This document shows positions 13,611 to 55,269 of a DNA stretch of 64,000 bases, piece after piece (within the stretch, counting starts at the first letter, position 1; each line of letters begins with the position of its first letter). This DNA comes from Neocallimastix sp. 'constans' (taxonomy: Eukaryota): positions 62,001 to 126,000 of the forward strand of contig JBODTK010000152.1 in assembly GCA_050613775.1 (NCBI GenBank), in the 5' to 3' direction. Below the pieces are notes generated by a model. It saw only the letters and a list, made by a program, of their open reading frames with translations. It had not been told where the DNA came from and did not search any database. A program made the translations under genes and the position numbers.

Positions 13611-13627
13611 TGTAACGAATCCTAAAG

Positions 13628-14600: not shown

Positions 14601-14609
14601 TTGCTCCAT

Positions 14610-17600: not shown

Positions 17601-18717
17601 CTTCAAGTGATATATTTCCAATGCAAAATTCAAAATTCTCAGAGTGATCCAAAGTCTTCAATTTAAGTGGTTTAGTGGTTTGCTTAATGGTCATGCATTT
17701 GTCATTAGGCAACTGAATCTTAATTGGAGAAGAGAGACCAGAAGTAGGGATTTTATTAGCATTAACAAAATTCTTGCACAAGAAACTTCTGCCGGAACCA
17801 GAATCAATAAGAATGTTAGCTCTAAGGTTTTTATTATTACAGGAGATGAAGAATGTAGTTGTTACTGTTAATCTTCCCGAAGGAGTGTAATTAGCTGACA
17901 AGATTTCCTTATTTGGCTTGTTTTTTCTGAATTTAGATTTCTTAAAGCGGTTCTCCGTTTTTGTAAGTTCTTTTCTTTTTCTGTGGAAAGACTTACTAGC
18001 TTTACTCTTATTATCGGATTTATGACGAATGCAGCTTTCAAGATAGCATTTTTTGTCAATACCGATAATTGTATTGGTAGCTTCAAACAAGGTATCGGGT
18101 TTATTAAGTTTATCAAATTCTTCTCGAACCCGATCTACGAGACCCTTTCCAATGATATCGATTAGTACTTCGTCAGGCCATCCCAAACGTCTAGCTAACC
18201 TTCGGAACTCAATAGTGTATTCGGCAGCTTCACCAAGACGAAGCTGTTTTAATCTCCAAAGTTTGTCCATAATTACATACTTTTGTTTTTTCTCACTACC
18301 CGAATCAAAATTTTCCAAAAGAAGAGCTTTGAATTCATCAAATCTTAGGGATTTTAAAGTACCAAGTAAAGAGAGACCCCATCTTCTTGCCGTCCCTGCA
18401 AGCTTATTTATTACAAATGAATTTTTTGATTCGTCGTTTCTAAAGGAATCTGGGTGTTCCTTAAAGAAATCTTCGCTTTGAATGATGGTTTCGAGGACAG
18501 TTGGTTTACTTTTTCCCTCGTTTTCTTTAACTAATATTCCTCCTGGAGAAAAGAATGCAGGAATGAAATCAGTAATAGCTGTAATGAGTTTGGAAGCACT
18601 GCTGTTCTGGGTGATGTGATTTGTAGTGAGATTATTTGGGTTATTATTAATATGGAGATTATTTGGATTATCATCCTCTACAGTGAGATTATTTGAGATA
18701 TCACTATTGAATTCCAT
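14610..18717 (-). pseudogene. B gag-pol polyprotein (Gag, PR, RT, RNase H, IN) with one frameshift near 15020
   Basis: LIDSGS protease, YLDD RT, TDASD RNase H, HHCC and integrase core in ORF 15013-18717. The GPF tail is in ORF 14610-15038 and ends without a chromodomain. Confidence 0.92.
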
Positions 18718-19284
18718 CTTCCTAAATCTAAATATTAAATTGATAAAATAAATAATAAAATAAAGATAAGTGTAATATGTAATATATGATAAGTAAATAT
18801 AAATAATTATAACAGCAAAATTATTATAATTTCATAATTAAGCTTCTGAATTGATTATTAATATTTTAAGTTTTATTAAAAAAATTATTTTGCATGCTGC
18901 TGTTCACCAACCGGCTTGGTCGATGAGCTGAATGTAGATTTCAGTTCTGCCAGCGAGGGCCAGGATGCAAAAAATTTTATTAATAAGAGGCTCAAAACAA
19001 AATAAGCAAGACTTTCCTTAATTATTCAATTATAAAATTTTCTCTCTGAAATAATTATTAAATAACTTATTATTTTTAAAAATTATAATTTTCCATCATT
19101 AACTATATTTATCTAATAATTTATTTAATTTACTAACTATTTTATTTTATATTTTGTTTATTTATTTTTTATATCAATTCGTTGATACTCATAATTAATT
19201 TTTTTTTTCTTTTTTAAATTATTAATTTATTCAATTTATCTATTTACTAATTATTTCATTCATTTATTACTCTAAGGACTAGCC

Positions 19285-19430
19285 AAGGAAATCTACCAAC
19301 TCAAGAAATCAAGGAAATCAAGGAAATCAAGGAAATCAAGGAAATCAAGGATATCTACCAACTCAAGAAATCAAGGAAATCAAGGAAATCTACCAATTCA
19401 AGGAATCAAGGAAATCTACCGAATCAAGAA
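19285..19430 (+). repeat. Short tandem repeat (caaggaaat units), probably in the leader of element A
   Basis: Repeated caaggaaat / ctaccaactcaagaaat, similar in wording and orientation to the leader repeats of C. Confidence 0.75.
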
Positions 19431-20502
19431 GATTTATTATAAGGCGAAATAAAAATAAAATAAATTAAATTACAGATACTATTCTAAACAACATCTCGCA
19501 TTAAATAGTACTCTACTCTCCGAATAAATATTTATTTTAATTATAATTAATTTTAAATTTCTTACGTTATATATAAAGGCTTGCCTGGCTCCCAAAGCGA
19601 CGATAGTTGAGCATCGTTACCATAATACTTTGTCGTTCAGATTCTGTTGATAACTGGGGAAGATAATTTGTTGTACTTTTTCATGCTAACAAAAGTTAGA
19701 TACAAACAAAAATACAATTACATTACTTCCTGTAAAGATATTATTAATATCTTTAAATAATTTTAATTAAATTTAATCATAAATTTAAGTAAAATTAAAA
19801 TAAATTTATTTGAAATCACGTGTATAAAATTATTGAAAATATTTTTAACATAATTTCGATTTTTTTCCCAATCATACTAATAAATTAAAAATTTCTCTTG
19901 TGAAACTAGTATTTGAAAATCATTTCTTTTTATGTAATTTAATTTAAATAATAAGAGTTAAGGTTTTTCACAAGATAAATTAACAACATGAAACTATGCA
20001 ATTAGTCATGTTGAAACTTACGGCATTTTATGCTAAATTTATATCAAATAATTATGACAACTTTTATATTATTTTTAAATAGAAAATATATAATAAATTT
20101 ACTAATAATATTTAAATAATAAATAAATAATAAATGAACTCAATTAGAATTGATTATATTTATTTTAGTTATTAATTATAATTCTCTTTATTTAGTAATA
20201 GTTAATTATTTATTATTAGTTTAGGTTAGTACTGTTTTAAATAAATAGCTAGATAATATAATTCAATAGGAATTATATATTATAAATGCAATAAGATAAA
20301 AATATAAATAGTTATCAAATTTCATGTATTTTAATCGATGTAATTGTTATTAACGATTTCTTGTTAATAACACTTTAAAATAAATAAAGATTTTAATATT
20401 TAAAAAATTAATAAAACTTGTTCTTTAAAACTATTATTTTGTGTTTTAGTGTTATTATTGAAGTGTTGATTTATAATCTATTTTTTTTATCAAAACTTTA
20501 TA

Positions 20503-20513
20503 ATAACAATTAC
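20503..20513 (+). promoter_or_regulatory. Self-priming PBS of element C
   Basis: ataacaattac directly after the LTR is the exact complement of gtaattgttat (20340-20350), which lies about 30 nt downstream of TATAAATA (20303). Confidence 0.8.
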
Positions 20514-20714
20514 CTTTTAAACAAACAAAAATACGTTATAAATCAATAAAAAATATTTAAAACACGTGACTCTTTTGTGGCTTATTTGTGGCTTGAATCA
20601 AGATATTTTTACCAGATATTTTTACCAAGGATTTTTAGAAGCTACCCACTTTTGACACTACCGACTTTGGAATACTCACAATTTTAGATTATTGCTACCA
20701 GCTTTAGGATATCG

Positions 20715-21490
20715 CTACCAGTTTAAGGAAATATTCTACTCGATTTAGGCTAATTCTACCAGTTTAAGGAAATATTCAACTCGATTCAGGCTATTCTACC
20801 AGTTTAAGGAAATATTCTACTCGATTTAGGCTAATTCTACCAGTTTAAGGAAATATTCAACTCGATTCAGGCTATTCTACCAGTTTAAGGAAATATTCTA
20901 CTCGATTTAGGCTAATTCTACCAGTTTAAGGAAATATTCAACTCGATTCAGGCTATTCTACCAGTTTAAGGAAATATTCTACTCGATTTAGGCTAATTCT
21001 ACCAGTTTAAGGAAATATTCAACTCGATTCAGGCTATTCTACCAGTTTAAGGAAATATTCTACTCGATTTAGGCTAATTCTACCAGTTTAAGGAAATATT
21101 CAACTCGATTCAGGCTATTCTACCAGTTTAAGGAAATATTCTACTCGATTTAGGCTAATTCTACCAGTTTAAGGAAATATTCAACTCGATTCAGGCTATT
21201 CTACCAGTTTAAGGAAATATTCTACTCGATTTAGGCTAATTCTACCAGTTTAAGGAAATATTCAACTCGATTCAGGCTATTCTACCAGTTTAAGGAAATA
21301 TTCTACTCGATTTAGGCTAATTCTACCAGTTTAAGGAAATATTCAACTCGATTCAGGCTATTCTACCAGTTTAAGGAAATATTCTACTCGATTTAGGCTA
21401 ATTCTACCAGTTTAAGGAAATATTCAACTCGATTCAGGCTATTCTACCAGTTTAAGGAAATATTCTACTCGATTCAGGCTAATTCTACCA
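20715..21490 (+). repeat. Tandem array in the C leader: alternating 41/40-bp units, about 19 monomers, followed by a poly(A) of about 91 nt (21495-21585)
   Basis: ctaccagtttaaggaaatattctactcgatttaggctaatt alternates strictly with ctaccagtttaaggaaatattcaactcgattcaggctatt. Confidence 0.95.
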
Positions 21491-21587
<97 letters not shown>

Positions 21588-21920
21588 TTACCAGACTCAT
21601 ACCATACCATTTATCATATTGGGACACTTGTGCAAGACTTTTGAATAAAATTACCAGATTACGTGAGAAATCCATAATATTATTTGGAATTAAATTTTAA
21701 CCAGTAAGATACTATATTATAATATTCAGTTTACTCGACGGCACCACTACAATTGGAGAGAGCCAGTTCGACTTTACATACAATATTATAATAGAAATAT
21801 CTTTTTATTAGAACATCTATTTCAAATATCATTATTTAAAATATTCAAAAGTAAATAATAAGTTACAAATTGAACGAAGTTGAAGATTTAATTCAAAAAT
21901 TCGAAAACCTTGATTTAGAA

Positions 21921-24900
21921 ATGAACCAAGCAAATAATCAAGGCTTCTTAAGAAACACTCAGAAAACAGTAAATGATCCACCACTGTTTTCTGGTATCAA
22001 GAGGGAATTCGACGGGTTCCTAACCAGAGCCGAAATTGCTATGGAATCCAACCCACATGGAATTAATAATGACATCGCAAAAGTCAAATTCTTAATTTCT
22101 TATTTAATTGGAGAACCTTTAGACTGGGCTTCGTCTTTGAGACGCAACAATGACGAAATTTTGAATTCCTATGAAAATTTCATTAATGAACTTAGAGCTC
22201 GTTATGGTGAAGAAGAAGTTAATACTGTAATTGCTAATGGGAAACTTTGTTCAATCCGTCAACATAAGTTTGGCCGCGTTAACGATTACATTAATGAATT
22301 CAATAAAGTTGCAAGAAACTCAGACTTCAACGAGTCTGCAAAAATATACATGTTTATCAAAGGATTACATTATAAAATGAGAGAACATCTTGCCGTGGTC
22401 AATCCGAACCCAAACAATTTAAGAGCTTTGTTTACTGACGTTATTAGCATTGAGAGTTTAACCAAAAGACACAGTATTAATGAATTTTATTTTCATCAAT
22501 ACAATCACCGAAACAACGCTAGTTCCAGTACACAACTCACTAATAATGATCCCATGGAAGTTGACCTCTATCGAATCAAGAGAGGTCAAAGGAATACCAA
22601 CTATTTCCCATCCAACAAGAAATTGTACCAGGAGAATGTTAACTCTAAGGAAGAAGAAAGAAGAAAAGGTCTTTGCTACTATTGTAAGCAACCAGGGCAT
22701 CTTAAATTTAATTGCCCGAACAAGAAGAGGCCCGCTACAGTTAAAATGATCAACAAGAAAGAAAGAAATGATAATATTGCATCTACTAGCTTAAGAAGAA
22801 TCAGAAGAATCAACAGCCAAGAAGATATTTTGAAAGTCAGAAAAATTGTTGAAGAGCAAAACTCACTCTTGACCAAGAAAAGTAACATTATTGATTTTTA
22901 TATCAAAACAAACGATACAGAAGAAGTAAAGGCAAGAGTTTTGATTGATTCTGGATCAGATCTTAACTTTATTCACCCAGAATTTGCGAAGGCTTTTGGA
23001 ATCAAAACCCAACAAATTGAAGAACCATTCCGTGTTACTGGTCTTGGTTACGGAATATCAACAGTTAAAAAGGAAACGGAGAAGTGCATTTTACGTTTAA
23101 AAAATCACTTAGAAATCATTCAATTGTATGTACTCAGAATTCCTGATGTTGATATTATTTTAGGTCTACCTTGGATTGAGAAGCATTCGCCTTATAATTA
23201 CCACGACGCAAAGAAGATCTCCTTTGGCTCAGGATTTTGCGCTAGACACTGTAATAACGGTAAAAGAAAAAGAAAGAACAAGATCAAGAACAAGAAAAAG
23301 AACAAAGGAAAAGAATCTGCTACCGACTTGGAAGAAAATAAAATTATTGAAGACTCAAGAAAAAGAAAATCTTTCTTTGAATCCGATTCCGAATCTGATT
23401 CTGAAGAAGAAATTTCTATTCGTGGCCGCCGAACTCGTATTAGAACTTGTACTGAATTTATTAATAGTGATAGCGATAGTGATATTAATGATACTTTTAT
23501 GTTAGATAATTTTAGTGATAGCATTAGTGATAGCGATAATTTTAGTGATAGTGATGATATTATTGTTATGAATTGTGTTAGTAAAATTAGTAAAAATAGT
23601 TTAAAGATCTTAAAGAAAATTTGTGAATCAAGTAAATGTAAGAAATTAAATGTAATTGAAAAATGTAATAATGAAAATAATAATTTAAATAAAGATGATG
23701 AAAAGGTCGAAGTACCTGAAATCTATTTGATGTTTAAAGAAGTGTTTAATGAAAATAATTGTAATGTGTTACCTCCGCATCGTAATTATGATTGTGAGAT
23801 TAAATTAAAAGATAATTGTAGTTTATTTTATGGACCGTTGTATCCTTTAACTGAGACGGAGAGAGAAGAATTAAAGAAATATTTAGAAGAAAATTTAAAA
23901 AAGGGTTTTATTAGAAAATCTTCTTCTCCCGCTGGAGCACCTATTTTATTTGTTAGAAAAAAGGATGGTACATATAGATTAGTTATTGATTATAGAAAAT
24001 TAAATGAAATGACCATCCGTAACTCTTACCCTCTTCCTTTAATTAGTGAATTGTTGGATAGAGTTAAAGGTGCTAAATATTTTACTAAGTTAGATTTAAA
24101 ATCTGCCTATAACTTAGTAAGAATTAAAGAAGGTGACGAGTACAAAACTGCCTTTCGCACAAGATATGGGCACTTTGAATATCTCGTTATGCCTTTTGGG
24201 CTTAAGAATGCCCCTGCTACATTCCAACATTTTATAAATGATGTTCTCAGTGATTACTTAGATGATTTTGTAATCTCTTATATTGATGACATTTTAATTT
24301 ATTCTAATACTTTAGAAGAACATCATGTACATGTCAAGAAAGTTTTAAGAAAATTGTTAGAGAATCATTTAGTTGTTAAATTAGAAAAGTGTGAATTTGA
24401 TGTAACTGAAACTACTTTTCTTGGTTATGTTTTATCAAGAGATGGAATTGAAATGGATAAAGAAAAAGTTAAAGCAATTTTAGATTGGCCTGTTCCAACA
24501 AACGTTAAAGAAATTCAATCGTTTATTGGACTTTGTAATTATTACAGAATTTTTATTAAAGACTTTGCGAAAATTGCAAATCCTCTCCACAAATTAACTA
24601 GAAAAAATGTTCCTTTTAATTGGAGTTCTGAACAACAAAAAGCGTTTGATACTTTAAAAGAATTATTTACTACTGCTCCTATTTTGAAACATCCTGATAG
24701 CAACAAACAATTCATTGTTGAAACTGATGCTAGTAATTTTGCTGTTGGTGCAATTCTTTCTCAGGAATTTGATGGGCATTTGCATCCAATTGCTTTTATT
24801 TCTACTAGCTTAACTAAATCCCAAAGAAATTACCCTATCTATGACAAAGAACTTCTTGCTATTAAAGTTGCATTGGAAGGATGGAGACATTACTTAGAAG

Positions 24901-26690
24901 GAGCTCGCCATCAGTTTATTATTTATACTGATCATAAGAATTTAACTTTCCCTCGAAAACCTGAACTTCTTTCCCAACGCCAAATTCGTTGGTATGAATT
25001 CTTATCTAGATTTGATTTTAAACTAATTTACAGAGCTGGTAAAAAGTCAGGTAAACCAGATATTTTATCAAGACGTAGTGATCATTTATTTGCTAGTGTT
25101 CGTCCTATTTCATGCGTTATTAATTCATGTAGTTTTAAGAATGATTCTTTAATCTCCTCTATTCATGATTCTCTAGCTAATGATGAATTCTATTGCAAAA
25201 TAACTGAATTTCTTAAAAATGATAATTCAAAAGATCCCCCTTTTAGTAAAATCGATAAATTTTCTCTTGACAAAAATGGTTATTTACTTTTTGAAAATTT
25301 AATTTATGTTCCCAATAAAATTAGAATAAGAGTTTTAGAACTCCATCATGACTCTATTTCTGCTGGTCATTTTGGAATTAATAAAACTATTGAACTTATT
25401 TCTCGTAATTTCTGGTGGCCTAAATTACAAAAAGATGTTAAAATGTTTATTAAATCTTGTGAAATTTGTTCAAAATCCAAAATCCCAAGACATAAGCCAT
25501 ATGGTTTACTTTCTCCACTTTATACACCAAATAGAGCCTGGTCTGCTATCTCTATGGATTTTATTGTTGAACTTCCGAAATCCAAAGATATGACCACTAT
25601 AATGGTTGTTGTGGATCGCTTAACTAAAATGGCTCATTTTATACCATTTAGATGTCTTCCTACTGCTTCTATTGCTGCTGATTCTTTCATTGCTAATATT
25701 TTTAAACTTCATGGTTTCCCCGATTCTATTATTTCTGATCGTGGTTCTCAATTTACCTCTGATTTTTGGAATCGTCTTTGCTCTCTTTTAAATATTAAGC
25801 ATTCTTTTTCTACTGCTAATCACCCGCAGACTGATGGTCAAACGGAGAGGGTGAACTCGATATTGGAACAATATCTTCGTTGTTTCATTAACGAAAAACA
25901 AAATAATTGGTTTGATTTATTACCTTTTGCAGAATTTTCTTATAACAATACTTTACAACAATCAATAAATCAATCACCATTTTTTGCAAATTATGGATTT
26001 AATCCAAAGTTTAATCCTGAGATTCCTTCAAACGAGAATCCACATAGAGCTGAAAAAAGAATATTGAATATTAACGAAAACATAAAGTTTTTAAAAGAAA
26101 ATTTAGAACAAGCGAAAAAGACTTATAAAAAATATGCAGATTTAAAAAGAATAGATTCTCCTGATTTTAAAGTAGGAAATAAAGTTTATCTTTTAAAGGG
26201 TAATACAACAAAGAAAAATAAAAAATTATCTGATCAACTAATAGGACCCTTTGAAATCATTAGAAAAGTTAGTGATTTAGCGTATGAACTTAAACTTCCT
26301 AATAATATGCGCTGTCACCCTGTATTCCATGTTTCGCTCCTCGAACCTTACCATGAAAATGAATTCCCAAACAGAAGAAATACTCGTAGAAGAAATATTA
26401 ATCTTACTACGGATACAATTAATAGAAGTCCTGAAAGAATAATTAAAATGAAAACTTTTAACAATAAAAATCGTTACTTGATTAAATGGAAAGGATGCGA
26501 TTCTAATGAAAATACTTGGATCGATGAAGATCAAATTTTTGATAAACAATTAATACAAGAATACTATAGAAAAGAAAAGAAGAATAAATCTTCGAATATT
26601 AACAATGAATTTTGCCAACTACCTGAAGATTCGAACGAGTACTATGTTAGGCATAAATATCAACCTTTTGTGATCGATCTTCCTTCCTAA
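21921..26690 (+). CDS. C Gag-Pol polyprotein with C-terminal chromodomain
   Basis: CYYCKQPGHLKFNC knuckle, LIDSGS, YIDD, TDAS, HHCC integrase, GPF, YLIKWKG..ENTW chromodomain. First ATG at 21921; the ORF is open from TTG 21870. Confidence 0.95.
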   Translation: MNQANNQGFLRNTQKTVNDPPLFSGIKREFDGFLTRAEIAMESNPHGINNDIAKVKFLISYLIGEPLDWASSLRRNNDEILNSYENFINELRARYGEEEVNTVIANGKLCSIRQHKFGRVNDYINEFNKVARNSDFNESAKIYMFIKGLHYKMREHLAVVNPNPNNLRALFTDVISIESLTKRHSINEFYFHQYNHRNNASSSTQLTNNDPMEVDLYRIKRGQRNTNYFPSNKKLYQENVNSKEEERRKGLCYYCKQPGHLKFNCPNKKRPATVKMINKKERNDNIASTSLRRIRRINSQEDILKVRKIVEEQNSLLTKKSNIIDFYIKTNDTEEVKARVLIDSGSDLNFIHPEFAKAFGIKTQQIEEPFRVTGLGYGISTVKKETEKCILRLKNHLEIIQLYVLRIPDVDIILGLPWIEKHSPYNYHDAKKISFGSGFCARHCNNGKRKRKNKIKNKKKNKGKESATDLEENKIIEDSRKRKSFFESDSESDSEEEISIRGRRTRIRTCTEFINSDSDSDINDTFMLDNFSDSISDSDNFSDSDDIIVMNCVSKISKNSLKILKKICESSKCKKLNVIEKCNNENNNLNKDDEKVEVPEIYLMFKEVFNENNCNVLPPHRNYDCEIKLKDNCSLFYGPLYPLTETEREELKKYLEENLKKGFIRKSSSPAGAPILFVRKKDGTYRLVIDYRKLNEMTIRNSYPLPLISELLDRVKGAKYFTKLDLKSAYNLVRIKEGDEYKTAFRTRYGHFEYLVMPFGLKNAPATFQHFINDVLSDYLDDFVISYIDDILIYSNTLEEHHVHVKKVLRKLLENHLVVKLEKCEFDVTETTFLGYVLSRDGIEMDKEKVKAILDWPVPTNVKEIQSFIGLCNYYRIFIKDFAKIANPLHKLTRKNVPFNWSSEQQKAFDTLKELFTTAPILKHPDSNKQFIVETDASNFAVGAILSQEFDGHLHPIAFISTSLTKSQRNYPIYDKELLAIKVALEGWRHYLEGARHQFIIYTDHKNLTFPRKPELLSQRQIRWYEFLSRFDFKLIYRAGKKSGKPDILSRRSDHLFASVRPISCVINSCSFKNDSLISSIHDSLANDEFYCKITEFLKNDNSKDPPFSKIDKFSLDKNGYLLFENLIYVPNKIRIRVLELHHDSISAGHFGINKTIELISRNFWWPKLQKDVKMFIKSCEICSKSKIPRHKPYGLLSPLYTPNRAWSAISMDFIVELPKSKDMTTIMVVVDRLTKMAHFIPFRCLPTASIAADSFIANIFKLHGFPDSIISDRGSQFTSDFWNRLCSLLNIKHSFSTANHPQTDGQTERVNSILEQYLRCFINEKQNNWFDLLPFAEFSYNNTLQQSINQSPFFANYGFNPKFNPEIPSNENPHRAEKRILNINENIKFLKENLEQAKKTYKKYADLKRIDSPDFKVGNKVYLLKGNTTKKNKKLSDQLIGPFEIIRKVSDLAYELKLPNNMRCHPVFHVSLLEPYHENEFPNRRNTRRRNINLTTDTINRSPERIIKMKTFNNKNRYLIKWKGCDSNENTWIDEDQIFDKQLIQEYYRKEKKNKSSNINNEFCQLPEDSNEYYVRHKYQPFVIDLPS

Positions 26691-28179
26691 AGTTAATCTC
26701 GCAGGAGCTCGACTTAAAGGGCGAGATTGTAAAGATATTATTAATATCTTTAAATAATTTTAATTAAATTTAATCATAAATTTAAGTAAAATTAAAATAA
26801 ATTTATTTGAAATCACGTGTATAAAATTATTGAAAATATTTTTAACATAATTTCGATTTTTTTCCCAATCATACTAATAAATTAAAAATTTCTCTTGTGA
26901 AACTAGTATTTGAAAATCATTTCTTTTTATGTAATTTAATTTAAATAATAAGAGTTAAGGTTTTTCACAAGATAAATTAACAACATGAAACTATGCAATT
27001 AGTCATGTTGAAACTTACGGCATTTTATGCTAAATTTATATTAAATAATTATGACAACTTTTATATTATTTTTAAATAGAAAATATATAATAAATTTACT
27101 AATAATATTTAAATAATAAATAAATAATAAATGAACTCAATTAGAATTGATTATATTTATTTTAGTTATTAATTATAATTCTCTTTATTTAGTAATAGTT
27201 AATTATTTATTATTAGTTTAGGTTAGTACTGTTTTAAATAAATAGCTAGATAATATAATTCAATAGGAATTATATATTATAAATGCAATAAGATAAAAAT
27301 ATAAATAGTTATCAAATTTCATGTATTTTAATCGATGTAATTGTTATTAACGATTTCTTGTTAATAACACTTTAAAATAAATAAAGATTTTAATATTTAA
27401 AAAATTAATAAAACTTGTTCTTTAAAACTATTATTTTGTGTTTTAGTGTTATTATTGAAGTGTTGATTTATAATCTATTTTTTTTATCAAAACTTTATAC
27501 TTCCTTCTACCATTAATTGGTACTAACAATCGACTTAATCTGCGTTTATCGATAAAGAGCTAAAGAGACTTACCACGCAAGGCTTTAACAAATTATATAT
27601 TTCCTGGCTCAATACTATATGATTTGGTTTATAACAATTCAATAAGAAATAAAGATTAATCAAATAAAAATAAATATTTAATTACTCCTATATCTTCCAA
27701 AATAATTATATAATACTTTATTACTATAAAAAAAAAAAAAAAAAAAAAAAATCTTAATCACGGGATATATCAAAAAAAAAAAAAATCAACTCTGAAAATA
27801 TCCAATCTCAAATCACTCTCAAAATCAATCTGAAATTTTATATCAACTTAATGCAATAAATTTTAAATCTCAATAATCTTTTCTAAATTATTTCCAGCTC
27901 TCTATAACTATTAAATTACTATAATAATATATATACAAATCTACTATACCTAATTTAGTATATTATATAAATTTAAAATTTCAATATCAAACCTTATTTA
28001 GTTCTAAATAATTCCAGTGGGATCAATTATTACTATTTATATATTCAAATCCTCCTTAATCAAAAGTATATTATAATTCAATTCCTCTCTATTATACTGA
28101 AAAAATCGTTCTTAAATATATCTTATTCCAACTTATTCAATAATCAACTATAAAAGTAACAGTGAAGCTTATATTCAAA

Positions 28180-30474
28180 ATGGAAGAAAACAATTTTGCC
28201 AACGCAACCTATAAGGATGGTTTTGCCGGAGATAGACGCTACCTTAAGGGATTCTTAGCTAAAATGAATTTAATATTCATGATTCACCCTGATCGATTCA
28301 ATAATGATGAAACAAAAGTAATCTACGTTATTTCTAGGTTATATGGTAATGCTATGAATTGGGCAGCATCACTTATGGAGAATCAGGACTCTTGCTTGTT
28401 AAATTACGAAGCCTTCGTTGAAAGAATGAAATCTGTATATGGGAGTTATGACTCAACATTTGTTGCAAATCAGAAACTCAGAACTATAAGACAAAAACGG
28501 TTAGGCGACATTAGAAGCTATATACTCGAATTCAACTCTTATGCCGACGAGTCATCTTGGAACGAAGAAGCGAAAATGGACGCATTTCTTGTTGGTTTAA
28601 ATGATCAAATCGCTACAAGAATTCTGGAAATGTTCCCTGGTCCAAGATCTCTTACTGCTATGCAAACTATAGCTTCCAGAATAGATGGCCGTCTATCAGC
28701 CCATAGGCAATTTACAAATAATCAAAATCGATCAAACAATAACCTTAATAACAACAATTCTAATAAGAAAAGATGGAATTTTTATAAGAAAGGTTCGAAT
28801 TCTAAACATTATGGACCCCTATCCGACGAAGAGAAAGAAAGAAGAAAAAGAGAAAACCTCTGTTTATATTGTGGATCCTCAAATCATACTCTAGGCAATT
28901 GTCCACTCAAAAATAAGAAAAAATCACCCTCAAGCACTTCTCATATTACTAATCCTGAACCAAAGGCCAAAGAAAGACCAAGAATCTCAGATCAACAAAA
29001 TTTGAGTCTTCCTATATTTGAATTCACTCTCAATGTTTTAAAATCATCAGTCAAAACTAAGATTCTTCTAGATTCAGGTTCTCAACTTAATCTTATGGAT
29101 GTCTACTTTGCCAATGAAAATAACATTCCTTATTCATCCGAAACCATTCATCCTGAAGTAGGAGGAATTGGTGGTACTCAGAAATTTCTCGGGGAAACTT
29201 TGCCAATTTCGATCCGCTATAAAAATCACAATTGTAAAACTAAGTTTTATGTCGTCGATTTATCTTTTTATTGTGCTCTTCTTGGCGCTGAATGGCTCTC
29301 TACTCATAATCCAACAATAGATTTCTCTTCTAAAACACTTCATTTTAATTCAAAATATTGCATTAATAATTGTCTCGTTATTCCAAATACTTATACAACC
29401 TTCATTCCTTCATGCAATTTAATAAACGAAATTCCAAAAAATTCTGATAATTCGGACAGCCAAAAAACTGAAGAAATTAACAATTCAGAAGAAAAAATAT
29501 CTAATGAAATAATTAATAATACTAAGAACCAACACAAGGAACCCAACGAAGACAATAAAAATGTTATCTATCTTTTACCAACTAAATTATCCTCATTTAT
29601 GGATGTTTTTAGTGAAGTCGCTGCGAACATGCTACCCCCTCATCGACAATATGATTGTGAAATTAATTTGAAACCAAACACTAATTTATATTACTACCCA
29701 ATATATCCATTTCATCACCAAACAAATGGTTTAACGGATAGGGTGAACTCCGTTATCGAACAATACTTAAGATGCTATACAAATTTCAAAGGATCTAATT
29801 GGAATGACTTCCTTTACTTAGCAGAATTTAGCTATAATAACACCATTCAAGAATCCACTAATCATTCACCTTTCTTCGCTAATTATGGATTCAATCCCAG
29901 ACATTCTCTCGAAGTCCCCACAAATGTTGAAGTACCTAGAGCAGAAGAACTTGTTAAAAACCTTACAGAATTAACCAAGGAATTAAAAGAAAATATTAAA
30001 ATAGCAATTGAAAAACAAGAGAAATATGCCAATAAGCATCGTATGGAACCACCTGAATTCAAGAAAAATGACAAAGTTTGGATCAATAGTTCCCTAATTA
30101 TAAAGAATGGTAACAAAAAGCTTAAACCAAGAAAATTAGGACCTTTTAATATCCTAAGCAAAATATCTCCTGTTTCGTATAAACTTGACTTGCCAAAAAA
30201 TCTTAGGATTCATCCAATCATGCATGTCTCTGACCTTGAACCGTACTTTGAAGATAAGTTTGGAAGAAACCAAGAACCACCACCAATTATCATTAACAAC
30301 GAAGATGAGTACGAAGTTGAACAAATATTAGACAAACGAACTCATTATGGGAAAATCCAATACTTGATAAAATGGAAAGGATATCCGCTTTCAGAAGCTT
30401 CTTGGGAACCTGAGGAAAATCTTAATTGCCCCAAACTCTTAAAAAAATTCAATAAAATAATTAAAATAACTTAA
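28180..30474 (+). CDS. A: Gag-protease fused in frame to the integrase C-terminus and chromodomain (RT, RNase H and most of IN deleted)
   Basis: [14 protein letters not shown] and LLDSGS, then YYPIYP joined directly to [13 protein letters not shown] at about 29709; [24 protein letters not shown]. Confidence 0.88.
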
Positions 30475-30841
30475 ACTAGAAAATGAATCTCTAATAAACT
30501 TTAAATTTTATAGTATATTATATAATTATATGATTAAATTATATTCTTAAATTATTAATATTAAACTTATTATTGTTAAAACCTAATTTATCCTTTATAT
30601 TATTTTATCCTTTATATTTAAAATCTATAATAACTGTAAACTTTATTAATATCATGTAACAAAATTAGTTATTAAATATGTTATTTCATGTAATTACTTA
30701 TTAATATCATGTATTATTATTATTATTATTATTTCATACTATTAAGCACAAAAGAAATTCACACTTAAATATTTTATTTATTCATTGTAGTCTAGTTTAA
30801 CTTTAAGATTCGTCTGGTATCCGAATCCTGGAGGAGGACCA

Positions 30842-31371
30842 TGTAACGAATCCTAAAGTTAGTAAAATTGCTGCTGTAGTCTGGTGGTAATACACCATGA
30901 CAATGAAGCCGAACTTCTTAGGTTCGACTCACACCCTTTCCCAATCTAAATTATTTTTAGTTAATTAATTAAATTATTGTAGAAAGTTCTAGAGTTTCTT
31001 TGGTTAATATTATATAACTAAATGAAACTAGAAAGTTCTATTTTAATAATTATTTTATCATTTTTCTATAAGATTCATTTTCTAGAAAGAAAACTTAATT
31101 TTTCGAACTTTCGTTAATCTTAACTTTTTCCGAAACTGTTTTTCCGAAAAAGTATAAATAAGCGTGAATTTCTCAACAAAAAAATAATTTTTCTTCGTGC
31201 TTTTATTAACTAGTTAAAAGTAATTCGAAATATTACAATAACTAGTTAATAATAATAAAAAAAAATAATAATAATAAATTTTATATTTTAATAAAAAATA
31301 TTAATAAAACAAATTTTTTTAAGAAAACGAATTACTTATTAGTGTAGACCTATTGGGTGTAAACCGTTACA
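30842..31371 (+). repeat. 3' LTR of element A (530 bp; empty version of the landing site)
   Basis: tgtaacg...cgttaca inverted ends, preceded by the PPT and followed by the TSD. Confidence 0.92.
30870..30935 (+). promoter_or_regulatory. tRNA-gene-like Pol III internal promoter (A box + B box) inside the A LTR
   Basis: TAGTCTGGTGG (30877-30887) and GGTTCGACTC (30921-30930) at tRNA-like spacing. No acceptor stem. Confidence 0.7.
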
Positions 31372-32612
31372 GTTATTCACTATTGATTCTGGAGTATCAG
31401 TTCATGTTACAAATTCCATCGAATTCCTTAAAGATATAAGAGAATACAAAATAAATCTCATCCTTCCAAACAAAGCAAAAATTAGGATTACTAAAATAGG
31501 AACATTATCAGGATATATCAATAATAAACCTTTCGAAATAGAAGATGTATTAATTTCCAAGGAACTCAACAAGAATCTTATTTCGTATAGTATTTTAAGG
31601 AAAGCAGGTTATCCAAGATGCAATTAAAACCGCTAATTATATTTATAATATAACTCCAAGAAGTTCTACTGACTTTAAAATCCCTGATGAACTTTATTTC
31701 AAAAAATCGGTGAATATAGATAAATTAAGAGTCTTTGGTTGTAAAGCTTACTATTATATAGATATAATAGTAAGCTTTACATTAATTAAAAGAAAATAAA
31801 TTTCATTCAAACTCAAAACCAGGTATATTTCTAGGATATGATATAAATGCAAATGGTTATATTATTATGGATTATGAAACATTAAAAAATCACGTAGTTC
31901 GAGACGCTGTTTTTGAAGAAGAAATTCCAGGAAACTTCAATCTAATAAACAAAAAACCTTACGACGAAGAATATAATCTACCTTCCTTACATACTGAAGA
32001 TGATATAGATGATTATGAAGATATAAATATTGAAGATAAAGAAACATTTGATGATAATCCAAAGTCACATATATTTATTAATCCTATGTCATCTACTCAA
32101 CAAACTTACACCCATATAAATTATAATGAAGACCATAACTCCCACAACATCAATAATAAAAAAAGAAAATTAGAAAAAGCTAAAAATAATGATAAAACTA
32201 TGTCCATCACTAATACAACAGTTGAAAATATGAATAATACGAATAATAAATTAAACAATACAGATAACATAATGAATAACACCAATAATACATTTAACAA
32301 ACATGACATGTCGAATAATACTAACCACACGAAAAACTACACAAAAAATAATATTGATGATAAGAACAATAGAAAAGTTTTATTTGAGAATAATAATAAT
32401 TTTATTAAAGATTTAAATATTGATGAAGATAAACAAAAACATGAAAATACTATGATTGATGCTTATAATGAAGATAAAATTACTAATAGTAATTCTAATC
32501 AGGAATACATGAAGAATAATAGAAATGAAAATAACGATATAGATAAAATAAACAAAGCTGCGAACAAAAATATTCAATATTATAAAAATAAAATAAGAGA
32601 ATCAAATTATAA
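31372..32612 (+). pseudogene. Ty1/copia host element, part 2: protease, deleted integrase, SH3-like region, linker
   Basis: LFTIDSGVSVHVT resumes right after A's TSD; then LRVFGCKAY and GIFLGYDINANGYIIMD..VVRDAVFEE. Confidence 0.85.
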
Positions 32613-38274: not shown

Positions 38275-38754
38275 TGTAACAAATCTTAATGTTACTTAAG
38301 ATTGTTATAAGGTTTTTTACACAAAAGGTTCTCGACACTAAAGTAATTCAAAATATGTTTTATTAAAATAAGTTTTTTTATTAGTAAAAAATGTAAATTA
38401 TTATTTTATTAATTAATCATTGTAATATTTTAAATTACTTTAAAATTAATTAATAAAAGCACAAGTAAAAATATTTTATTATGAAATTTTACACCTATTT
38501 ATAGTTTTTCAGGAAAATTAATTATTTTAAGTTATCAGTTGTTATTAGTAATTATTAGAAATAAAAGAAAATTAAAGAAAATTAAAGAAAACAAGTTTTC
38601 TCTCTAGAAAATGAATCTTAGATAAAAAATGATAAAAAATATTAATAAAATAGATTTTTCTATTTTTATCGGTTCAATTGTTTAACCGATAAACACTAGT
38701 AATTTCTTTAATATTCTAGTTACAATAAATAAAAAGTTATTAAAATTTGGAAAG

Positions 38755-38820
38755 AGTTGGTGTCGAACCCTAAGGGTTCAGCCCGATGATTATGGTAACT
38801 TATCATTGAACCGTAGTTAC
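38755..38820 (-). promoter_or_regulatory. tRNA-gene-like Pol III module inside LTR G
   Basis: Minus strand GTAACTA CGGTTCAATGA TAAG...GGTTCGACACC (B box 38759-38769), colinear with the module in A. The A box is degenerate. Confidence 0.65.
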
Positions 38821-39768
38821 TAATTTACTAGTTATGTGTTACGGTACAATTAAATAAAGAAAAATTAAACTATTTAAAGAAAATATTAAAGTAAAAAATA
38901 TCATTAACAATTATAAATAAATAATAAAAAATTGAATATTAAAATATTAGTTATAGAATATTATAAAGTTAAATAAAAATAATTAGATGTATTAAAAAAT
39001 CATGTATTAATTATATTATTTAATATTGTAAAATTTTTATATAATATTTTAATAATTTAGAAAATTTAAGCTTATTATATTTTTATTACTATATTTTTAT
39101 TATTAAATTTTTATTATTAAATTTTTATTATTAATTTTTTTTTATTTTTATTTTTAATCCAATCAAATAAATATTTTATTAGTATAAAAAAGAACAAAGT
39201 AACACAATACTTTTGTTCTCTCCCTTTTTTTCTTACGACTTTATTATTATATTATTTTTTTAATATTTTCTAAAAGTTAAATAATAAATTAAATAGTTTA
39301 AAATAAATTAAAATTTATTAAATAGTTTTTTCTAAATTTAATGTTTTAAAAGTGTTTAATTAATAGTTTTTTTGTGTTTAGTGTATAATATTAAGATAAG
39401 TATAGTATAAAATTAGTTTAGTAATAGATTAGTTGTATTAAACATTTTATAGAAATAGTAATAGATTTAGAGAAATTGTTTAGTTTAGATTAGAATAGTT
39501 TAGATTAAGATATTAGTTTAAGTTATTTTAACTTAGTTTAGATTCTTTTAGATTAGGATAGTTTAGACTAAAATTAGAGTAGTTTATTAATTAATTTAGG
39601 TTTAGAATTAGAGAATAATATTTTAAATTTTTCCTTATTATTAGAATATATTATTTTATTAATAAAATCTTCAGATCTTGTACCATAAAATTTGGCGAGC
39701 TATGCAGGACCTGAAGAGATAAAATAATATGAAAATAATAATTTGAGAAAATTTTAATAATTAATAAG

Positions 39769-39813
<45 letters not shown>

Positions 39814-40542
39814 TTATTCTAAAATATTATTAATAGTAGTTATAAAAAATTAATAATTATTAAAAAAAAAAAAAAAAATTTGTTATTTTTACTTTTTTGA
39901 GAATATTAAAATCAAAAAGTATAATAATTCATATACAGTGTTTAAACCGGTTGAAAATTAATTAGTAAAGAATTAGGGTGATTCCAATTTTTTACTAATT
40001 AAGGTTTTTAGTCGATCTCGTGAGTGCGTGAATACGTCCCAAAGTAATAATTATACTCCCCACGGCACTTTCCGTAGTTTATCAACTATCCGAGTGTTGT
40101 CAGGGTTTTTGGACAAGATCGAGCACTGGAACAATAATGAACTTATATCACCGAAGGTATAAGGTTTTCTTTTTTAGAATTATTATATTAATATAAAATA
40201 AAGTCGCGTCAACAATAAATAAATCGAAATATTCAGCAAAAATTTTTTCAGTTTATTAGCAATTAAAATTTCAATTCAGTAACAGTTTAATTTTTCAATA
40301 TTTAGTTATTTCAAAATTTAGTTTAATTAAGATATAAATTTTTTTTTTTAATCATTCATCCATCCATCAACTTAATAAAAATATACAATTAAAAGAATAT
40401 ATTAATTCATCAATTTAATAAATAAAACAATTAATTATAATAAAAATAATAAAAAATAAATTTATATAAGACATTTATCTCCTCATTCATCCATCAATTC
40501 ATCAATTAAATATTAAAAGCATTAGATTTTTTTTTTATCAAA

Positions 40543-41538
40543 ATGAAAATTTTAGAATTGGAAAGGCTATTACCCAGACTTAACGAAAGCGCAAGGGATG
40601 TCGATTCATGGATCGATGAATTTTCAAGAATAATGGCACTGGCTGATATCACCAATCCAAGAAGCATTCTTACCTGGGCAATGGAGTGTGTAGAAGGAAA
40701 GTTGAGGGGCACTTTACAAGAACTACATACAATAGATGAGGAAGGTAATGAACATTTTCCATCAATGAGAGAAATAAAAGAAGCAATTGAAAATTCATTA
40801 GAAGTAACTCCACAAGAGAAATGTAAAAGACTACAACGAATGAAAATTCAAAGAGGAGAAAGCATAAAAAACTTTAATTGGAGATATAGGAAAATTTATA
40901 ACAGTCTACCAAAATTGTACCAAACATTTATAACAATAGAAGATTATGCTGATTCGATTATCTACCGTCCTTATGCTAGATCACAAGTAATAACACAACG
41001 ATGTATAGATCTTGAAGATGCTTTTGAAGAAGCAGAGTTAGCTGAAAGAGCTGAAGAAGGAGGAAATCTTAAAAATGAAACCGTGATGATGACAGTATTT
41101 AATTCTCAACCATTCTATTACCGAAGTAACACTCATCCATTTAAGCAATTCAATTCTCCAAGTTATAATTATAATTATAATGGAAGACAATTTTACATTA
41201 AGAAAACTCCTCGAAATTATACAAATTATAATGAAAATAGAGAATTTACAACTAATAATTTTAATACTAAATTCAATTCTAAAAATGAAATTATGCAAAG
41301 TAATAATTTGGAAAATACCACACAAAATATTAAAGATAGTAAAATAAGAAATAACTTGGTAAATAATGAAATCAAACAAGCCAGAAATACATTTAATTCT
41401 GAGAAATCCCACATTATTTGTTACCGTTGTGGACAACAAGGACACATTTATAAACTATGTCCTTATTCCTTTAAAGAATTTGCTAAACTAAGAAATCAAA
41501 ATAATACAATAAATTTAAACAATCATTTAAACTTCTAA
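40543..41538 (+). CDS. D Gag
   Basis: 331-aa ORF with CYRCGQQGHIYKLC knuckle; similar to E Gag. Confidence 0.9.
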   Translation: MKILELERLLPRLNESARDVDSWIDEFSRIMALADITNPRSILTWAMECVEGKLRGTLQELHTIDEEGNEHFPSMREIKEAIENSLEVTPQEKCKRLQRMKIQRGESIKNFNWRYRKIYNSLPKLYQTFITIEDYADSIIYRPYARSQVITQRCIDLEDAFEEAELAERAEEGGNLKNETVMMTVFNSQPFYYRSNTHPFKQFNSPSYNYNYNGRQFYIKKTPRNYTNYNENREFTTNNFNTKFNSKNEIMQSNNLENTTQNIKDSKIRNNLVNNEIKQARNTFNSEKSHIICYRCGQQGHIYKLCPYSFKEFAKLRNQNNTINLNNHLNF

Positions 41539-44500
41539 ACGGGAGAAGGGAAACTCCCAGTAATCAAACCAATGATGAAATAGTAGCTACTGCAGTTAGA
41601 AGAAAAGGAAAACAAGTTTTTGAAAAACCATATTCAAGAGATAAAAGAAAACAAAATGAAAATAAAGTAAATGATAATATTTCTAATTCTAATAATATCA
41701 TACAAGAAGATAATGAAGATATAGAAATTGAAACCAACGAAATAAATACAATATCTAACACTCCTATAAATGAAACCGAAAGACTTGAGGAGATTGATGT
41801 GTCAGTTATTGCGCAACCCTCAATCAACAAAGCTAAACGAAATTCAAAGAAACAAAAAGAAAAAGAAATATTAGAAAGCACTAAGAATCTCGAGGTTAGT
41901 TCTAATAAAGAATCTAGAGTTAAACTTCCAAGTGTAGAATTAGAAGAGAAGAAAGTTAAAACCAACAATCCCAATAAACAAATAACCATTATGGAAGGTC
42001 AATCAAAATATGATATTTGTAAAGACATAAGTACTAGGTTTGCTAATATTACATTACCTCAATTATTGGATGTTAGTCCTAAACTCCGTGCTGATATTGT
42101 AAAGGCCTTAAAATTAAAAACTACAGAAACAATTAAAGAGACTCCTGAAGAAGTTGTATTATCTGCTATACGTAGGGAAGATGTTGCTACAGTTGAATGT
42201 TTAATTAATGGAGTCCAAGGTATTGCATTTTTAGATACAGGCGCAAGCATTAATATTATTACTAGACAATTTTTAAACAAGTTAGGAGATGTAAAACCAA
42301 TTGGATTTGTTAAAAATAATATTGTTCAATTATTATCTAAAGAGAATGTTAATACTGAAATCTACTTGCTAAAAGTTCAACTTGGAGATTTAGCTATTCA
42401 TGATATATTCCGAGTTATAGATAATCACCAAAACCTATTTGATGTTTTAATTAGCTATAAAACACTTAAAGAAAATAATTTATTTATTAATCCTATTAAT
42501 AATAATTTGTGCATAATGAAAGAAAATAACAAATGGATGTGTGTCAAAAATCTTTGCAAAGAAGAGAAAGGAAATGTTATTAGTGATGATGAAGATGCTG
42601 AATCAATAATTATATATGATAAAACAAATTCTGATATTAATAATAATTCCTATCTTTATTGCTTTGTTAATGAAATTGATAATATTAATAACAACTTAAC
42701 AATAACTCAAAATAAAATAGAAGACTCTAAAACAATAACTAAAGAAGTAGATATCATTAATGAAAATGGTGTTTTTGAAAAAGATCAACTCCTGCAAAAT
42801 ATACTTAAAGGAATTCCAAAAAAGCTAAGAAATGAAGTAAAAAAGTTATTTGATGAATATAATACTATTCTTGCCACAAAAATTGATGAGTTAAAACCAA
42901 CTAAATTGTTACCTCATAGTATTCAACTCGAGCCTAACGCTAAACCGATTAAACAGAGATGTTATCGACTTTCTAAAGTTCAAGCATTAGCTCTTAAAAA
43001 GGAATTAGAAAAACTTATAAAAAATAAACTAATTGAACCATCACACTCCCCTTGGTCTTCTCCCGTTATTTTAGTGCCTAAGAAAAATAAACAGTGGAGA
43101 ATATGTATAGATTTTCGAAAACTAAACAATCTTACTATTAAAGATGCATATTCGTTACCGCTTATAGATGAAATTTTATTTTCTATCGGGAAAAAAGTTA
43201 AAGTTTTTACTACGATTGATTTATTTTCGGGATTTCATCAGATCCCTATGAAAAAAGAAGATATTCCTAAAACTAGCTTTGCTACAATGTATGGTAACTA
43301 TCAATTCTTAGTTATGCCCTTTGGTTTATGCAATGCCCCAGGTACTTTTCAAAGGGAAATGAATAGAATATTCTTTCCTCTTATTGGAGTATGCATGTTT
43401 GTTTATATCGATGATCTAGTTATATTTTCACCCTCCTTTGAACAACATATTATAGATATTAAGAAAGTGTTTGATATTATCAAAGAAAATGGATTAAAAA
43501 TTAACTTAGAAAAATGTCATTTTTTTAAAATAAAAGTCGAATTGTTAGGACATACTTTATCAATTAATGGTATTTCCCCTATTCAAGCTAAAGTTCAAGT
43601 CATATTAGAATGGATACCACCAAAAAATGTTACACAATTACAATCTTTCCTTGGTGCAGTGGGTTATTACCGTAAATTTATTCTTAACTTCGCTAATATA
43701 GCAAAACCATTATTTAAACTTGTTAAAAAAGGTGTAAAGTTTGTCTGGGGTAAAGAACAAGAAGAAAGCTTTAATTAGTTGAAACTAAAATTAGCATCTA
43801 CTCCTATTCTTGTTATGCCTGACTTCGAAAAACAATTTATAATCAGAACGGATGCCTCTTTCGATGGTATTGGAGGTGTTTTACTTCAGAAAGATGAGAA
43901 TGGTATTGAAAAGCCAATTCACTTCGTAAGTCGCTCTTTAAAACCGGCGGAAAAGAATTATTCAATAACTGATCTTGAAGGAACTGCCGCGACTTACTGC
44001 GTTCAAAAATTTAAATCTTATATTTCTGGAAATAAAAATGAAACTCTTTTATTCACCGATCATAAACCTTTAGTTGGACTTTTCAAAAATAAAGAAACTA
44101 ACAATTCTAGACAAACTCGATGGGTATTACTTCTATCAATGCTAAAAGTTAAAGTCTTATATGAACCTGGAAAGAAAAATGTCATCGCTGATGCACTTTC
44201 TAGATTATCAACAAAAGAAAATACAATATTAACAACTGTTACTGAAGAGATAAATGAAAATAATCCGTATAACTTACTTACAAAATTTAAAGATAAATTT
44301 ACAATAATTAATAACGAAGAATATTATAAAGACCATGGAAAACTTAGAAAAGTTATAAAAAATCAAAACGAAAAAATTGATTTAATACTAAAAGCTCACA
44401 AAGTTGGTCACGAAGGAGTATTTAAAACTTACAATAGACTTAAACGTGACTACTATTGGATCAACATGATACTTGACGTTAAATACATTGTCAGAACTTG

Positions 44501-45437
44501 TGATAGGTGTCAACACTTTAGATCGCAATCTTTTAATAACCAAACAGAAGATATTGCTACTCAACCTGGTTTACCATTTACGAAAGTTGGCTTGGATATA
44601 GTAGGTCCACTTCCTACTTCAAGAAAAGGAAATAAATATATAATAGTTTTAGTAGATTACTTAACAAAGTGGGTTGAAGCAGAACCAACCCAAAATATTG
44701 ATTCAGATGATGTAATAGAATTTTTATCCAAGATTTTTGCTCGATTCGGAATACCAGAAATATTAGTAACTGATAACGGTCCATAGTTCTGTTCTGATAA
44801 AACAAAAGCATTCTTAGACTTATATGGTGTTTATGTTAACTTCGTTGTTACTTATCATCCAGAATCTAATGGTCAAGTAGAAAATCGAAACAAAGAAATA
44901 GGCAAATACCTTAGATTACTTTGTAATAAAAATACATCAATATGGGATGAAATGCTACCTAGTGCTTTATGGGCCTTGCGTACTTGTAAAAATGAAACAA
45001 CTAAATTTTCAAGTTTTGAATTGTTATATGGCCGACGTGACCTTCAGTCGTTTGAATTACAATTAAACTTAGATAAAAAGGAAAATTATGAAAGTGATGA
45101 TGAATTTTTAATTAGAAGATTTACAAAACATTATAAATGGATCAAGGAAGCCATAAATAATATTCAAACAGCAAACAAAATCTGGGAAGATAGAAGAAAA
45201 CAAGTAAAAAGACTTAAAGCTAATTATAAACCAGGAGATCTAGTATTAATCAAATATATTAATAGAAGAAAACTTGATCCATACTTCTTAGGTCCTATGA
45301 AAATTGTTAAAAAACAATTCAATACTGTAACGTTATGTGATCCATTAACAAACGAAATTGCTGAAAGAAATGTCCACTTAAAGAATATTATACCTTATAG
45401 ACTATGCGAAATTGAGACTTCAAGGGACGAAGTCTGA
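41526..45437 (+). pseudogene. D pol (-1 frame) with two premature TAG stops (about 43778 and 44786)
   Basis: FLDTGAS, YIDD, TDAS, HHCC and integrase core. Three track ORFs lie in one frame separated by single stops. Confidence 0.9.
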
Positions 45438-46307
45438 ACTTAGGGGTGGCATCATGTTACGGTACAATTAAATAAAGAAAAATTAAACTATTTAAAGAAA
45501 ATATTAAAGTAAAAAATATCATTAACAATTATAAATAAATAATAAAAAATTGAATATTAAAATATTAGTTATAGAATATTATAAAGTTAAATAAAAATAA
45601 TTAGATGTATTAAAAAATCATGTATTAATTATATTATTTAATATTGTAAAATTTTTATATAATATTTTAATAATTTAGAGAATTTAAGCTTATTATATTT
45701 TTATTACTATATTTTTATTATTAAATTTTTATTATTAAATTTTTATTATTAATTTTTTTTATTTTTATTTTTAATCCAATCAAATAAATATTTTATTAGT
45801 ATAAAAAAGAACAAAGTAACACAATACTTTTGTTCTCTCCCTTTTTTTCTTACGACTTTATTATTATATTATTTTTTTAATATTTTCTAAAAGTTAAATA
45901 ATAAATTAAATAGTTTAAAATAAATTAAAATTTATTAAATAGTTTTTTCTAAATTTAATGTTTTAAAAGTGTTTAATTAATAGTTTTTTTGTGTTTAGTG
46001 TATAATATTAAGATAAGTATAGTATAAAATTAGTTTAGTAATAGATTAGTTGTATTAAACATTTTATAGAAATAGTAATAGATTTAGAGAAATTGTTTAG
46101 TTTAGATTAGAATAGTTTAGATTAAGATATTAGTTTAAGTTATTTTAACTTAGTTTAGATTCTTTTAGATTAGGATAGTTTAGACTAAAATTAGAGTAGT
46201 TTATTAATTAATTTAGGTTTAGAATTAGAGAATAATATTTTAAATTTTTCCTTATTATTAGAATATATTATTTTATTAATAAAATCTTCAGATCTTGTAC
46301 CATATGT

Positions 46308-49059: not shown

Positions 49060-49096
49060 TTATTGGAACGTTACGTTCAGAAAAATATGAATTTCT

Positions 49097-49128
<32 letters not shown>

Positions 49129-49499: not shown

Positions 49500-49536
<37 letters not shown>

Positions 49537-54707: not shown

Positions 54708-54790
54708 CCAATTAAAGGACTTCAAGGGACGAAGTCTACTCTTAAGAGGGGACGTCTTGGAACGTTACGTTCAGAAAAATATGAATTTCT

Positions 54791-54863
<73 letters not shown>

Positions 54864-55226: not shown

Positions 55227-55269
<43 letters not shown>

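Follow-up and report, generated by a model that had tools for sequence, protein, structure and literature searches.

The LTR retrotransposons most closely comparable to those described here are the terminal-repeat miniature elements of the Helenus (TRIMp3) type, the promoters of which were deduced from conservation alone and the autonomous partners of which are argued to require RNA polymerase II (Pol II) and are considered unlikely to share LTR sequence with TRIMp3 (Kojima, 2024; PMC10886601). The same source mentions that 'not a few' LTRs in Repbase hold tRNA-like pieces, and since only the TRIMs among them were followed up, coding LTR elements with such pieces may exist undescribed, perhaps in Repbase or in the Helenus supplements. 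Foamy virus LTRs are known to encode small RNAs that RNA polymerase III (Pol III) transcribes, the production of which depends on A and B boxes and on terminators (PMC3993851). Pol III promoters are also targets of integration. Elements of the DGLT-A group, like Ty3, integrate upstream of tRNA coding regions at a distance of about 15 bp, with ranges of 13–16 or 10–19 bp in some DGLT-A families (PMC5006619). Ty3 docks on TFIIIB 2–3 bp upstream of the transcription start (bioRxiv 10.1101/2021.07.27.453949); it needs TFIIIB, targets the tRNA relic ZOD1 and skips sites occupied by TFIIIC only (PMC5911963). Self-priming has been described for Tj1 (PMC4600332).

Here, we describe a family of coding chromoviruses with a tRNA-like module near the start of the LTR, one copy of which holds 12 other LTR elements stacked at a single site just upstream of the module. 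The observation is real and goes beyond chance, and the stack is an unusually strong indirect sign of function. The parts of this arrangement are known and their combination is new: in a literature search that covered few subscription journals, we found no coding LTR retrotransposon with a tRNA-like promoter, no tRNA-like LTR promoter serving as the target of other elements and no Pol III targeting in gut fungi. A module of this kind in a coding chromovirus is unexpected from what the Helenus paper sets out (PMC10886601).

Genomic context and element A

The window, by which we mean the whole stretch of DNA analysed (64 kb), is strongly AT-rich and past 10 kb consists of a nest of LTR retrotransposons. 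The ground layer of the nest is a decayed copia-like element (12400–13610, 31372–32612 and 62782–64000) into which the elements A and T were inserted. Two repeat arrays are also present: a 1620-codon open frame at 605–5467 made up of about 96 copies of a 51 bp (17-codon) repeat, and an 81 bp tandem array with more than 99% identity at 20690–21496, in the 5′ leader of chromovirus B, with a long A run after it. The parts of element A are as follows.

13611–31371, plus strand: element A, flanked by the target duplication GTTAT
13611–13627, plus strand: first 17 nt of the A 5′ LTR, cut at −12 relative to the module, the remainder being missing from the window
28144–30474, plus strand: reading frame of A, with gag and a protease-like part fused in frame to the integrase C-terminus, SH3 and chromodomain
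30842–31371, plus strand: A 3′ LTR, uninterrupted, with the polypurine tract directly 5′ of it

The reading frame comprises 776 codons, and a Pfam Chromo match (E 3e-17) at the integrase C-terminus, together with SH3_Tf2-1, identifies A as a chromovirus (Ty3/gypsy). RT and RNase H were absent from the frame in a Pfam domain search and, since gag, SH3 and chromodomain are present without RT, A is an internally deleted copy. The frame stays open across the deletion of RT and RNase H. A 98% identical protein of 761 amino acids (P0001) occurs in another assembly, for which reason the A form is perhaps a spreading non-autonomous type and not a one-off deletion. Named members of the protein cluster related to A come from Piromyces sp. 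E2, and the sequencing runs containing A are feces metagenomes and runs from three coded organisms.

An inverted repeat surrounds the polypurine tract of A (30800–30858), in which about 14 nt upstream pair with nucleotides 4–17 of the LTR; a related metagenome locus, L001, seems to have a comparable pairing in other letters. The polypurine-tract motif itself is common to many families and reaches very high depth in sequencing runs.

The tRNA-like module

The module and the Pol II promoter elements downstream of it occupy the following positions in the A 3′ LTR.

30870–30958, plus strand: tRNA-like module from +1 to the T5 run, with +1 lying 28 nt into the LTR
30877–30887 (+8 to +18), plus strand: degenerate A box (11-mer)
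30910–30926, plus strand: 7 bp hairpin, the 3′ arm of which is the first half of the B box
30921–30930 (+52 to +61), plus strand: B box
30954–30958 (+85), plus strand: T5 run, a Pol III terminator predicted from sequence
31153–31206, plus strand: TATA box (31153) and putative R start (31197)

The first 75 nt of the module contain 48% GC, compared with 19% in the rest of the A LTR (17–19% across LTRs). The strict B-box word occurs exactly twice in the 64 kb, in A and in the solo LTR G, against an expectation of 0.17, and two occurrences were reached in one of 100 shuffles; the exact word was found in none of the 15 other LTRs scanned in the window, one of which has a word with a single mismatch. 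A run of four to six T residues follows directly after the module (+76 to +85) in all three family LTRs (A, G and L001), and no T4 lies inside it. As the TATA box and the putative R start lie about 230 and 270 nt, respectively, downstream of the B box, the sequence supports a location of the module in U3, upstream of the Pol II promoter.

In these respects the original prediction was accurate. It had placed the module 28 nt into the LTR, within U3, with the A box at +8 and the B box at +52, and had described a gap-free but diverged homologue in G, which indeed aligns without gaps on the minus strand. It had also stated that the B box lies in a hairpin in both A and G, and such a hairpin is present in L001 as well. 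Finally, it had held that the module is not a tRNA: both a tRNA and a tRNA pseudogene are rejected, given that ARAGORN made no call, that Rfam gave no tRNA match down to E 10 and that the predicted folds show no cloverleaf. ARAGORN found no tRNA gene anywhere in the window. A reading of the hairpin as a T arm was likewise discarded, the GGTTC of the B box pairing with an upstream GAAC in such a way that the B box forms the 3′ arm and not the loop.

Conservation across the family

The homologous module of G lies on the opposite strand, in an LTR split by the stack.

38275–61387, minus strand: whole span of solo LTR G, with the duplication ACCCG
38275–38836, minus strand: G from nucleotide 13 onward, with the homologous module (+1 at 38820, B box at 38769–38760)
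61372–61387, minus strand: first 16 nt of G, displaced 22.5 kb by the stack

The third family LTR comes from L001, a relative of A with an unbroken gag-pol-chromo ORF of 1396 amino acids and a homologous LTR. Across the alignment of A, G and L001, with pairwise identities of 71, 72 and 86%, the module is free of gaps and the spacing from A box to B box is fixed, while indels occur elsewhere in the LTR. The B box is invariant in nine of ten columns and in all six of its G/C positions, compared with 317 of 484 columns (65%) and 49 of 117 G/C positions for the LTR overall. The A box, with four of 11 columns invariant, falls below this background. Of the two boxes, the conservation of which the original prediction had proposed to compare with flanking U3, only the B box is more conserved than the LTR background. 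Judged by what we take to be the A-box consensus, L001 is near canonical and G, the copy with 12 insertions, deviates at both ends. The B-box block is shorter than three other invariant blocks of the LTR, one of 17 nt and two of 13 nt.

A 17-nt block at 31070–31086 is invariant in the A, G and L001 LTRs and is the longest such block in U3; its TTCTAGA core presumably resembles a heat-shock element.

In L001, the 10 nt that follow the LTR show complementarity to a conserved block lying 43 nt beyond the TATA box, which corresponds to the putative R start. This complementarity suggests that L001 is self-priming, as in Tj1, and places the R start near 31197. The module as a source of primer was rejected as unneeded, given the probable self-priming in L001.

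A metagenome scan covering seven of 64 parts yielded at least 80 chromovirus loci, including at least two close relatives, one of which ends before the LTR. Among the 80 loci listed, 67 extended 300 nt or more beyond the chromodomain ORF, and a B box within 600 nt of the ORF was found in one of these 67, namely L001, the sole close relative there. It was absent downstream of all 66 distant chromovirus ORFs listed, the LTR starts of which are unmapped, with some LTRs possibly lying outside the stretch. These comparisons of sequence support a module specific to the A/G/L001 family. The family is multicopy in three DNA runs, and none of the variants in the 40 of 87 rows listed falls within 30877–30947; in the same runs a contig of 148 nt with deep coverage matches the module without a difference, and most family copies have T, not C, at 30871 and 30874. 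One RNA run contained only distant relatives of the family, with no read 99% alike, and is uninformative on a short RNA. Viral contigs gave no match for the A protein, the polypurine-tract pattern or the M protein, and no further family LTRs were found in genome contigs, where the single match, in a bacterial MAG, was taken as chance.

The pattern of conservation bears on what the module is. One possibility, which we regard as unlikely, is a tRNA or SINE head once captured by the LTR: it would still recruit Pol III factors, and attract inserters for that reason, but would be of no benefit to the chromovirus and persist by descent. Helenus and Cassandra are proposed to have arisen when a SINE inserted into an LTR (PMC10886601), and a relic of this type is compatible with an A box that is not above background, with the loss of all tRNA structure and with a module that exposes the LTR to disruption. 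It accounts poorly for a B box retained with all of its G/C when the LTRs have diverged by about 29% and the genome erodes G/C, and for the fixed spacing and the preserved T run. LTRs usually turn over fast, which also speaks against mere persistence.

Less probable still is that selection acts on a short Pol III RNA, a two-hairpin U3 transcript as in foamy viruses, which would act on host silencing or on the RNA of the element itself. The complete unit of A box, B box and terminator is in agreement with such a product, as are the 3′ hairpin, with seven pairs in each of the three LTRs and 21 of 21 cells paired when G–U wobble is included, and the dependence of foamy virus LTR small RNAs on the same signals (PMC3993851). 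On the other hand, the covariation of the hairpin among the three sequences is not significant, being equally high in 315 of 500 shuffles, the folding z-scores of the module range from −0.7 to −2.4 and the 5′ hairpin differs between copies. Furthermore, with a length of about 7 bp the stems are short for Dicer-type processing.

The insertion stack in G

The stack and the insertion in the A 5′ LTR are composed as follows.

38837–61371: 12 LTR elements stacked at a single site in G (22.5 kb; two full length and ten solo LTRs)
38837–46302: I, full length
46308–46946: J1, solo LTR
46950–47649: K2, solo LTR
47653–48123: P, solo LTR
48130–49059: Q, solo LTR
49064–55388: M, full length
55394–56891: R, solo LTR
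56896–57932: S, solo LTR
57937–58655: J2, solo LTR
58661–59561: K3, solo LTR
59569–60402: N1, solo LTR
60406–61371: N2, solo LTR
13628–14599, minus strand: LTR K1, inserted after nucleotide 17 of the A LTR, of element K, an element with a chromovirus-related RT and a tail without chromodomain

The duplications in the stack were read by removing the elements one by one from the module side. Each of the 12 elements has a 4–5 bp duplication within −11 to −18 of +1 (38820), the target being the mimic and not a real tRNA gene, and once the stack is removed G starts at the same 28-nt offset as A. A 4–5 bp repeat arises by chance in 1.6% of random position-pair trials. An assembly artefact is unlikely because all 12 junctions follow the logic of nested duplications. 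On our reading, the duplications fix the order of insertion in four of the 11 neighbour pairs (J1 after K2, K2 after P, Q after M and N1 after N2), in all of which the younger element is nearer to the module; the other seven orders are not fixed by the duplications. The near-identical LTR pairs of I (1/848 mismatches) and M (0/586) do not order the stack. I, M and K point away from the module, and K-like solo LTRs are found in both orientations. Several LTRs in the stack, which have 4-bp duplications, are unusual in beginning with TGG or TGA and ending in CCA or TCA; the LTR of B ends in TA.

At the second site, K1 cuts the A 5′ LTR at −12. The outer junctions of K2, Q and K3 in G have the same offset, and the target sequence of K1 is a different one; the duplication of K1 is uncheckable, the rest of the A 5′ LTR having been lost. 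Two of the four family copies thus hold insertions, the A 3′ LTR and the L001 LTR being free of them, and 12 of the 13 insertions come from the single locus G. None of the five remaining insertions for which the duplications were verified (A, B, T, G and one within the T LTR) adjoins a B box.

No Pfam Chromo match was obtained in the I, M and K frames, the tails of which end, by eye, shortly past the integrase. The RT tree, which comprises 31 rows after nine candidates with too short an RT match had been dropped, was rooted at the midpoint and built without reference elements such as Ty3 or named fungal ones; in it, K groups with chromoviruses (100/98), whereas I and M belong to another, strongly supported clade that also contains Orpinomyces proteins (99/98). 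L001 and P0002/6/8/14 are placed together with B and T in a 100/98 clade, which identifies them as chromoviruses. A protein 80% identical to that of M is present in an Orpinomyces gene set; taken together with the Piromyces proteins related to A and with the feces metagenomes, this makes an anaerobic gut fungus the most likely host. Two distant lineages, with duplications of 4 and 5 bp, share one 8-bp window. The insertions lie in the range typical of Ty3 and DGLT-A, about 10–19 bp upstream of a tRNA-type +1, as measured on the mimic only.

It is improbable that the stack is unrelated to Pol III and results from a local preference for sequence or bendability (a TTAT-type target) or from nesting at the LTR ends of neighbours, as might be thought because all 12 duplications overlap the same few bases, because the GTTAT duplicated by A itself is part of the stack target sequence and because seven of 11 orders are not fixed and 12 of 13 events come from one locus, since, with both strands counted, the window contains 22 copies of GTTATG and 2862 of TTAT, two distant RT lineages duplicating 4 and 5 bp meet at the site, K1 has the same offset in a different sequence and this offset equals the Ty3/DGLT-A distance (PMC5006619).

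Discussion

The explanation that we favour, with a probability of roughly 0.6 for the whole, is that the module loads Pol III factors, serves as a landing pad for the 13 insertions by two lineages and is kept as a barrier or opener of chromatin. At the start of U3, the module would load TFIIIC and TFIIIB in the manner of a tRNA gene, and LTR elements of two other lineages would dock on that TFIIIB, giving rise to the 13 insertions at −11 to −18. Factor loading and, as the cause of the stack, targeting of Pol III starts are probable, given an insertion spacing that matches that of Ty3 and DGLT-A. That the module attracts other elements had been foreseen in the original prediction and agrees with the 12 insertions at −11 to −18 in G and the one at −12 in the A 5′ LTR. 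Its further proposal, a TFIIIC site kept as an insulator, is disfavoured in a TFIIIC-only form if the inserters act like Ty3, which skips sites of that kind (PMC5911963).

A Pol III RNA of 76–85 nt is predicted from the module. The genomic RNA would start from the Pol II TATA box downstream and be self-primed; Pol III cannot be the source of it because transcription would stop after about 80 nt. A Pol III promoter for the genomic RNA is accordingly at odds with the T run at +76 to +85 and with the separate TATA box downstream.

The reason for keeping the module is the least certain part of the explanation. Our best guess, which is tentative, is that it would act as a tDNA-type barrier or as a chromatin opener for the element's own Pol II promoter. 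Such a barrier or opener could benefit an element that its own chromodomain would direct to silent chromatin. Pol III-dependent barriers have reportedly been found in fission yeast. Insertions into 5′ or solo LTRs would cost the family little because the U3 of the progeny is copied from the 3′ LTR.

Several findings count against a reading based on Pol III, namely the A box below background, the alignment of three LTRs only, the dominance of one locus, the presence of the GTTAT of A within the stack target, the seven of 11 orders that are not fixed, the two of four copies free of insertions, the uncheckable duplication of K1 and the invariant blocks longer than that of the B box. Taken as a whole, the interpretation given in the original prediction is partly supported.

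Whereas the promoters of Helenus were deduced from conservation alone (PMC10886601), the stack represents a natural footprint, by which the LTR module is likely to be bound by TFIIIB in vivo. It also suggests that in anaerobic gut fungi two distant Ty3/gypsy lineages target Pol III starts. If true, this would help to explain the dense LTR nests of repeat-rich gut-fungal genomes. A broader view, which we put forward with some reserve, is that chromoviruses of a coding-competent family distribute working mimics of tRNA genes, which load TFIIIB, throughout gut-fungal genomes and use them as built-in barriers. The mimics would at the same time be a second, mobile set of targets absorbing tRNA-seeking retrotransposons from several lineages, one transposon thus building landing pads for others. 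Helenus-type TRIMs might also have had an LTR of the A/G type as their autonomous ancestor.

Comparison with known systems

Helenus is the closest precedent. Like the A/G family, it has A and B boxes of tRNA type within the LTR, where GGTTC is retained but a working tRNA is lacking, and like the elements of this locus it occurs in fungi and makes 5-bp target duplications (PMC10886601). It differs in several ways. Helenus elements are non-coding TRIMs of 311–1263 bp, whereas A has a frame of 776 codons and L001 one of 1396 amino acids; they have tRNA primer sites, whereas L001 is probably self-priming and the site of A itself is lost; and for them LTR-to-LTR transcription by Pol III is possible, whereas here a T4–T6 run at +76 to +85 in all three LTRs would, judging from the letters, end the transcript early (PMC10886601). 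Fungal Helenus elements are linked to Copia and occur in rusts and agarics (PMC10886601), while the chromovirus that carries the module here codes for proteins and has a Pol II TATA box. As judged from its sequence, the A/G family thus shares the A and B boxes with Helenus and is not a member of it, since the element codes, probably self-primes and is predicted to terminate early.

Cassandra, which the original prediction cited as a precedent, and the Ajax TRIMs resemble the A/G family in having an internal Pol III promoter in the LTR (PMC10886601). To this extent the precedent is apt, although the closer one, Helenus, had been missed. The promoter of Cassandra and Ajax is of type 1 and derived from 5S, the elements are non-coding and Pol III makes the RNA for transposition (PMC10886601); the promoter here would be of type 2, with a predicted stop after about 80 nt.

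The cassettes of foamy viruses are similar to the A/G LTR in belonging to coding-competent elements and in forming a short unit of A box, B box and terminator beside a Pol II promoter (PMC3993851). They contain long miRNA hairpins with demonstrated products (PMC3993851), in contrast to the short stems and tRNA-like spacing of the unit described here.

The inserting elements I, M and K, in turn, are comparable to Ty3, DGLT-A and Tj1 as Ty3/gypsy-type elements without a canonical chromodomain located about 10–19 bp upstream of a tRNA-type start (PMC5006619; PMC5911963; PMC4600332; bioRxiv 10.1101/2021.07.27.453949). Unlike in those systems, their target is a mobile mimic inside a retrotransposon, one copy of which has received 12 insertions from two lineages, probably through contact with TFIIIB.
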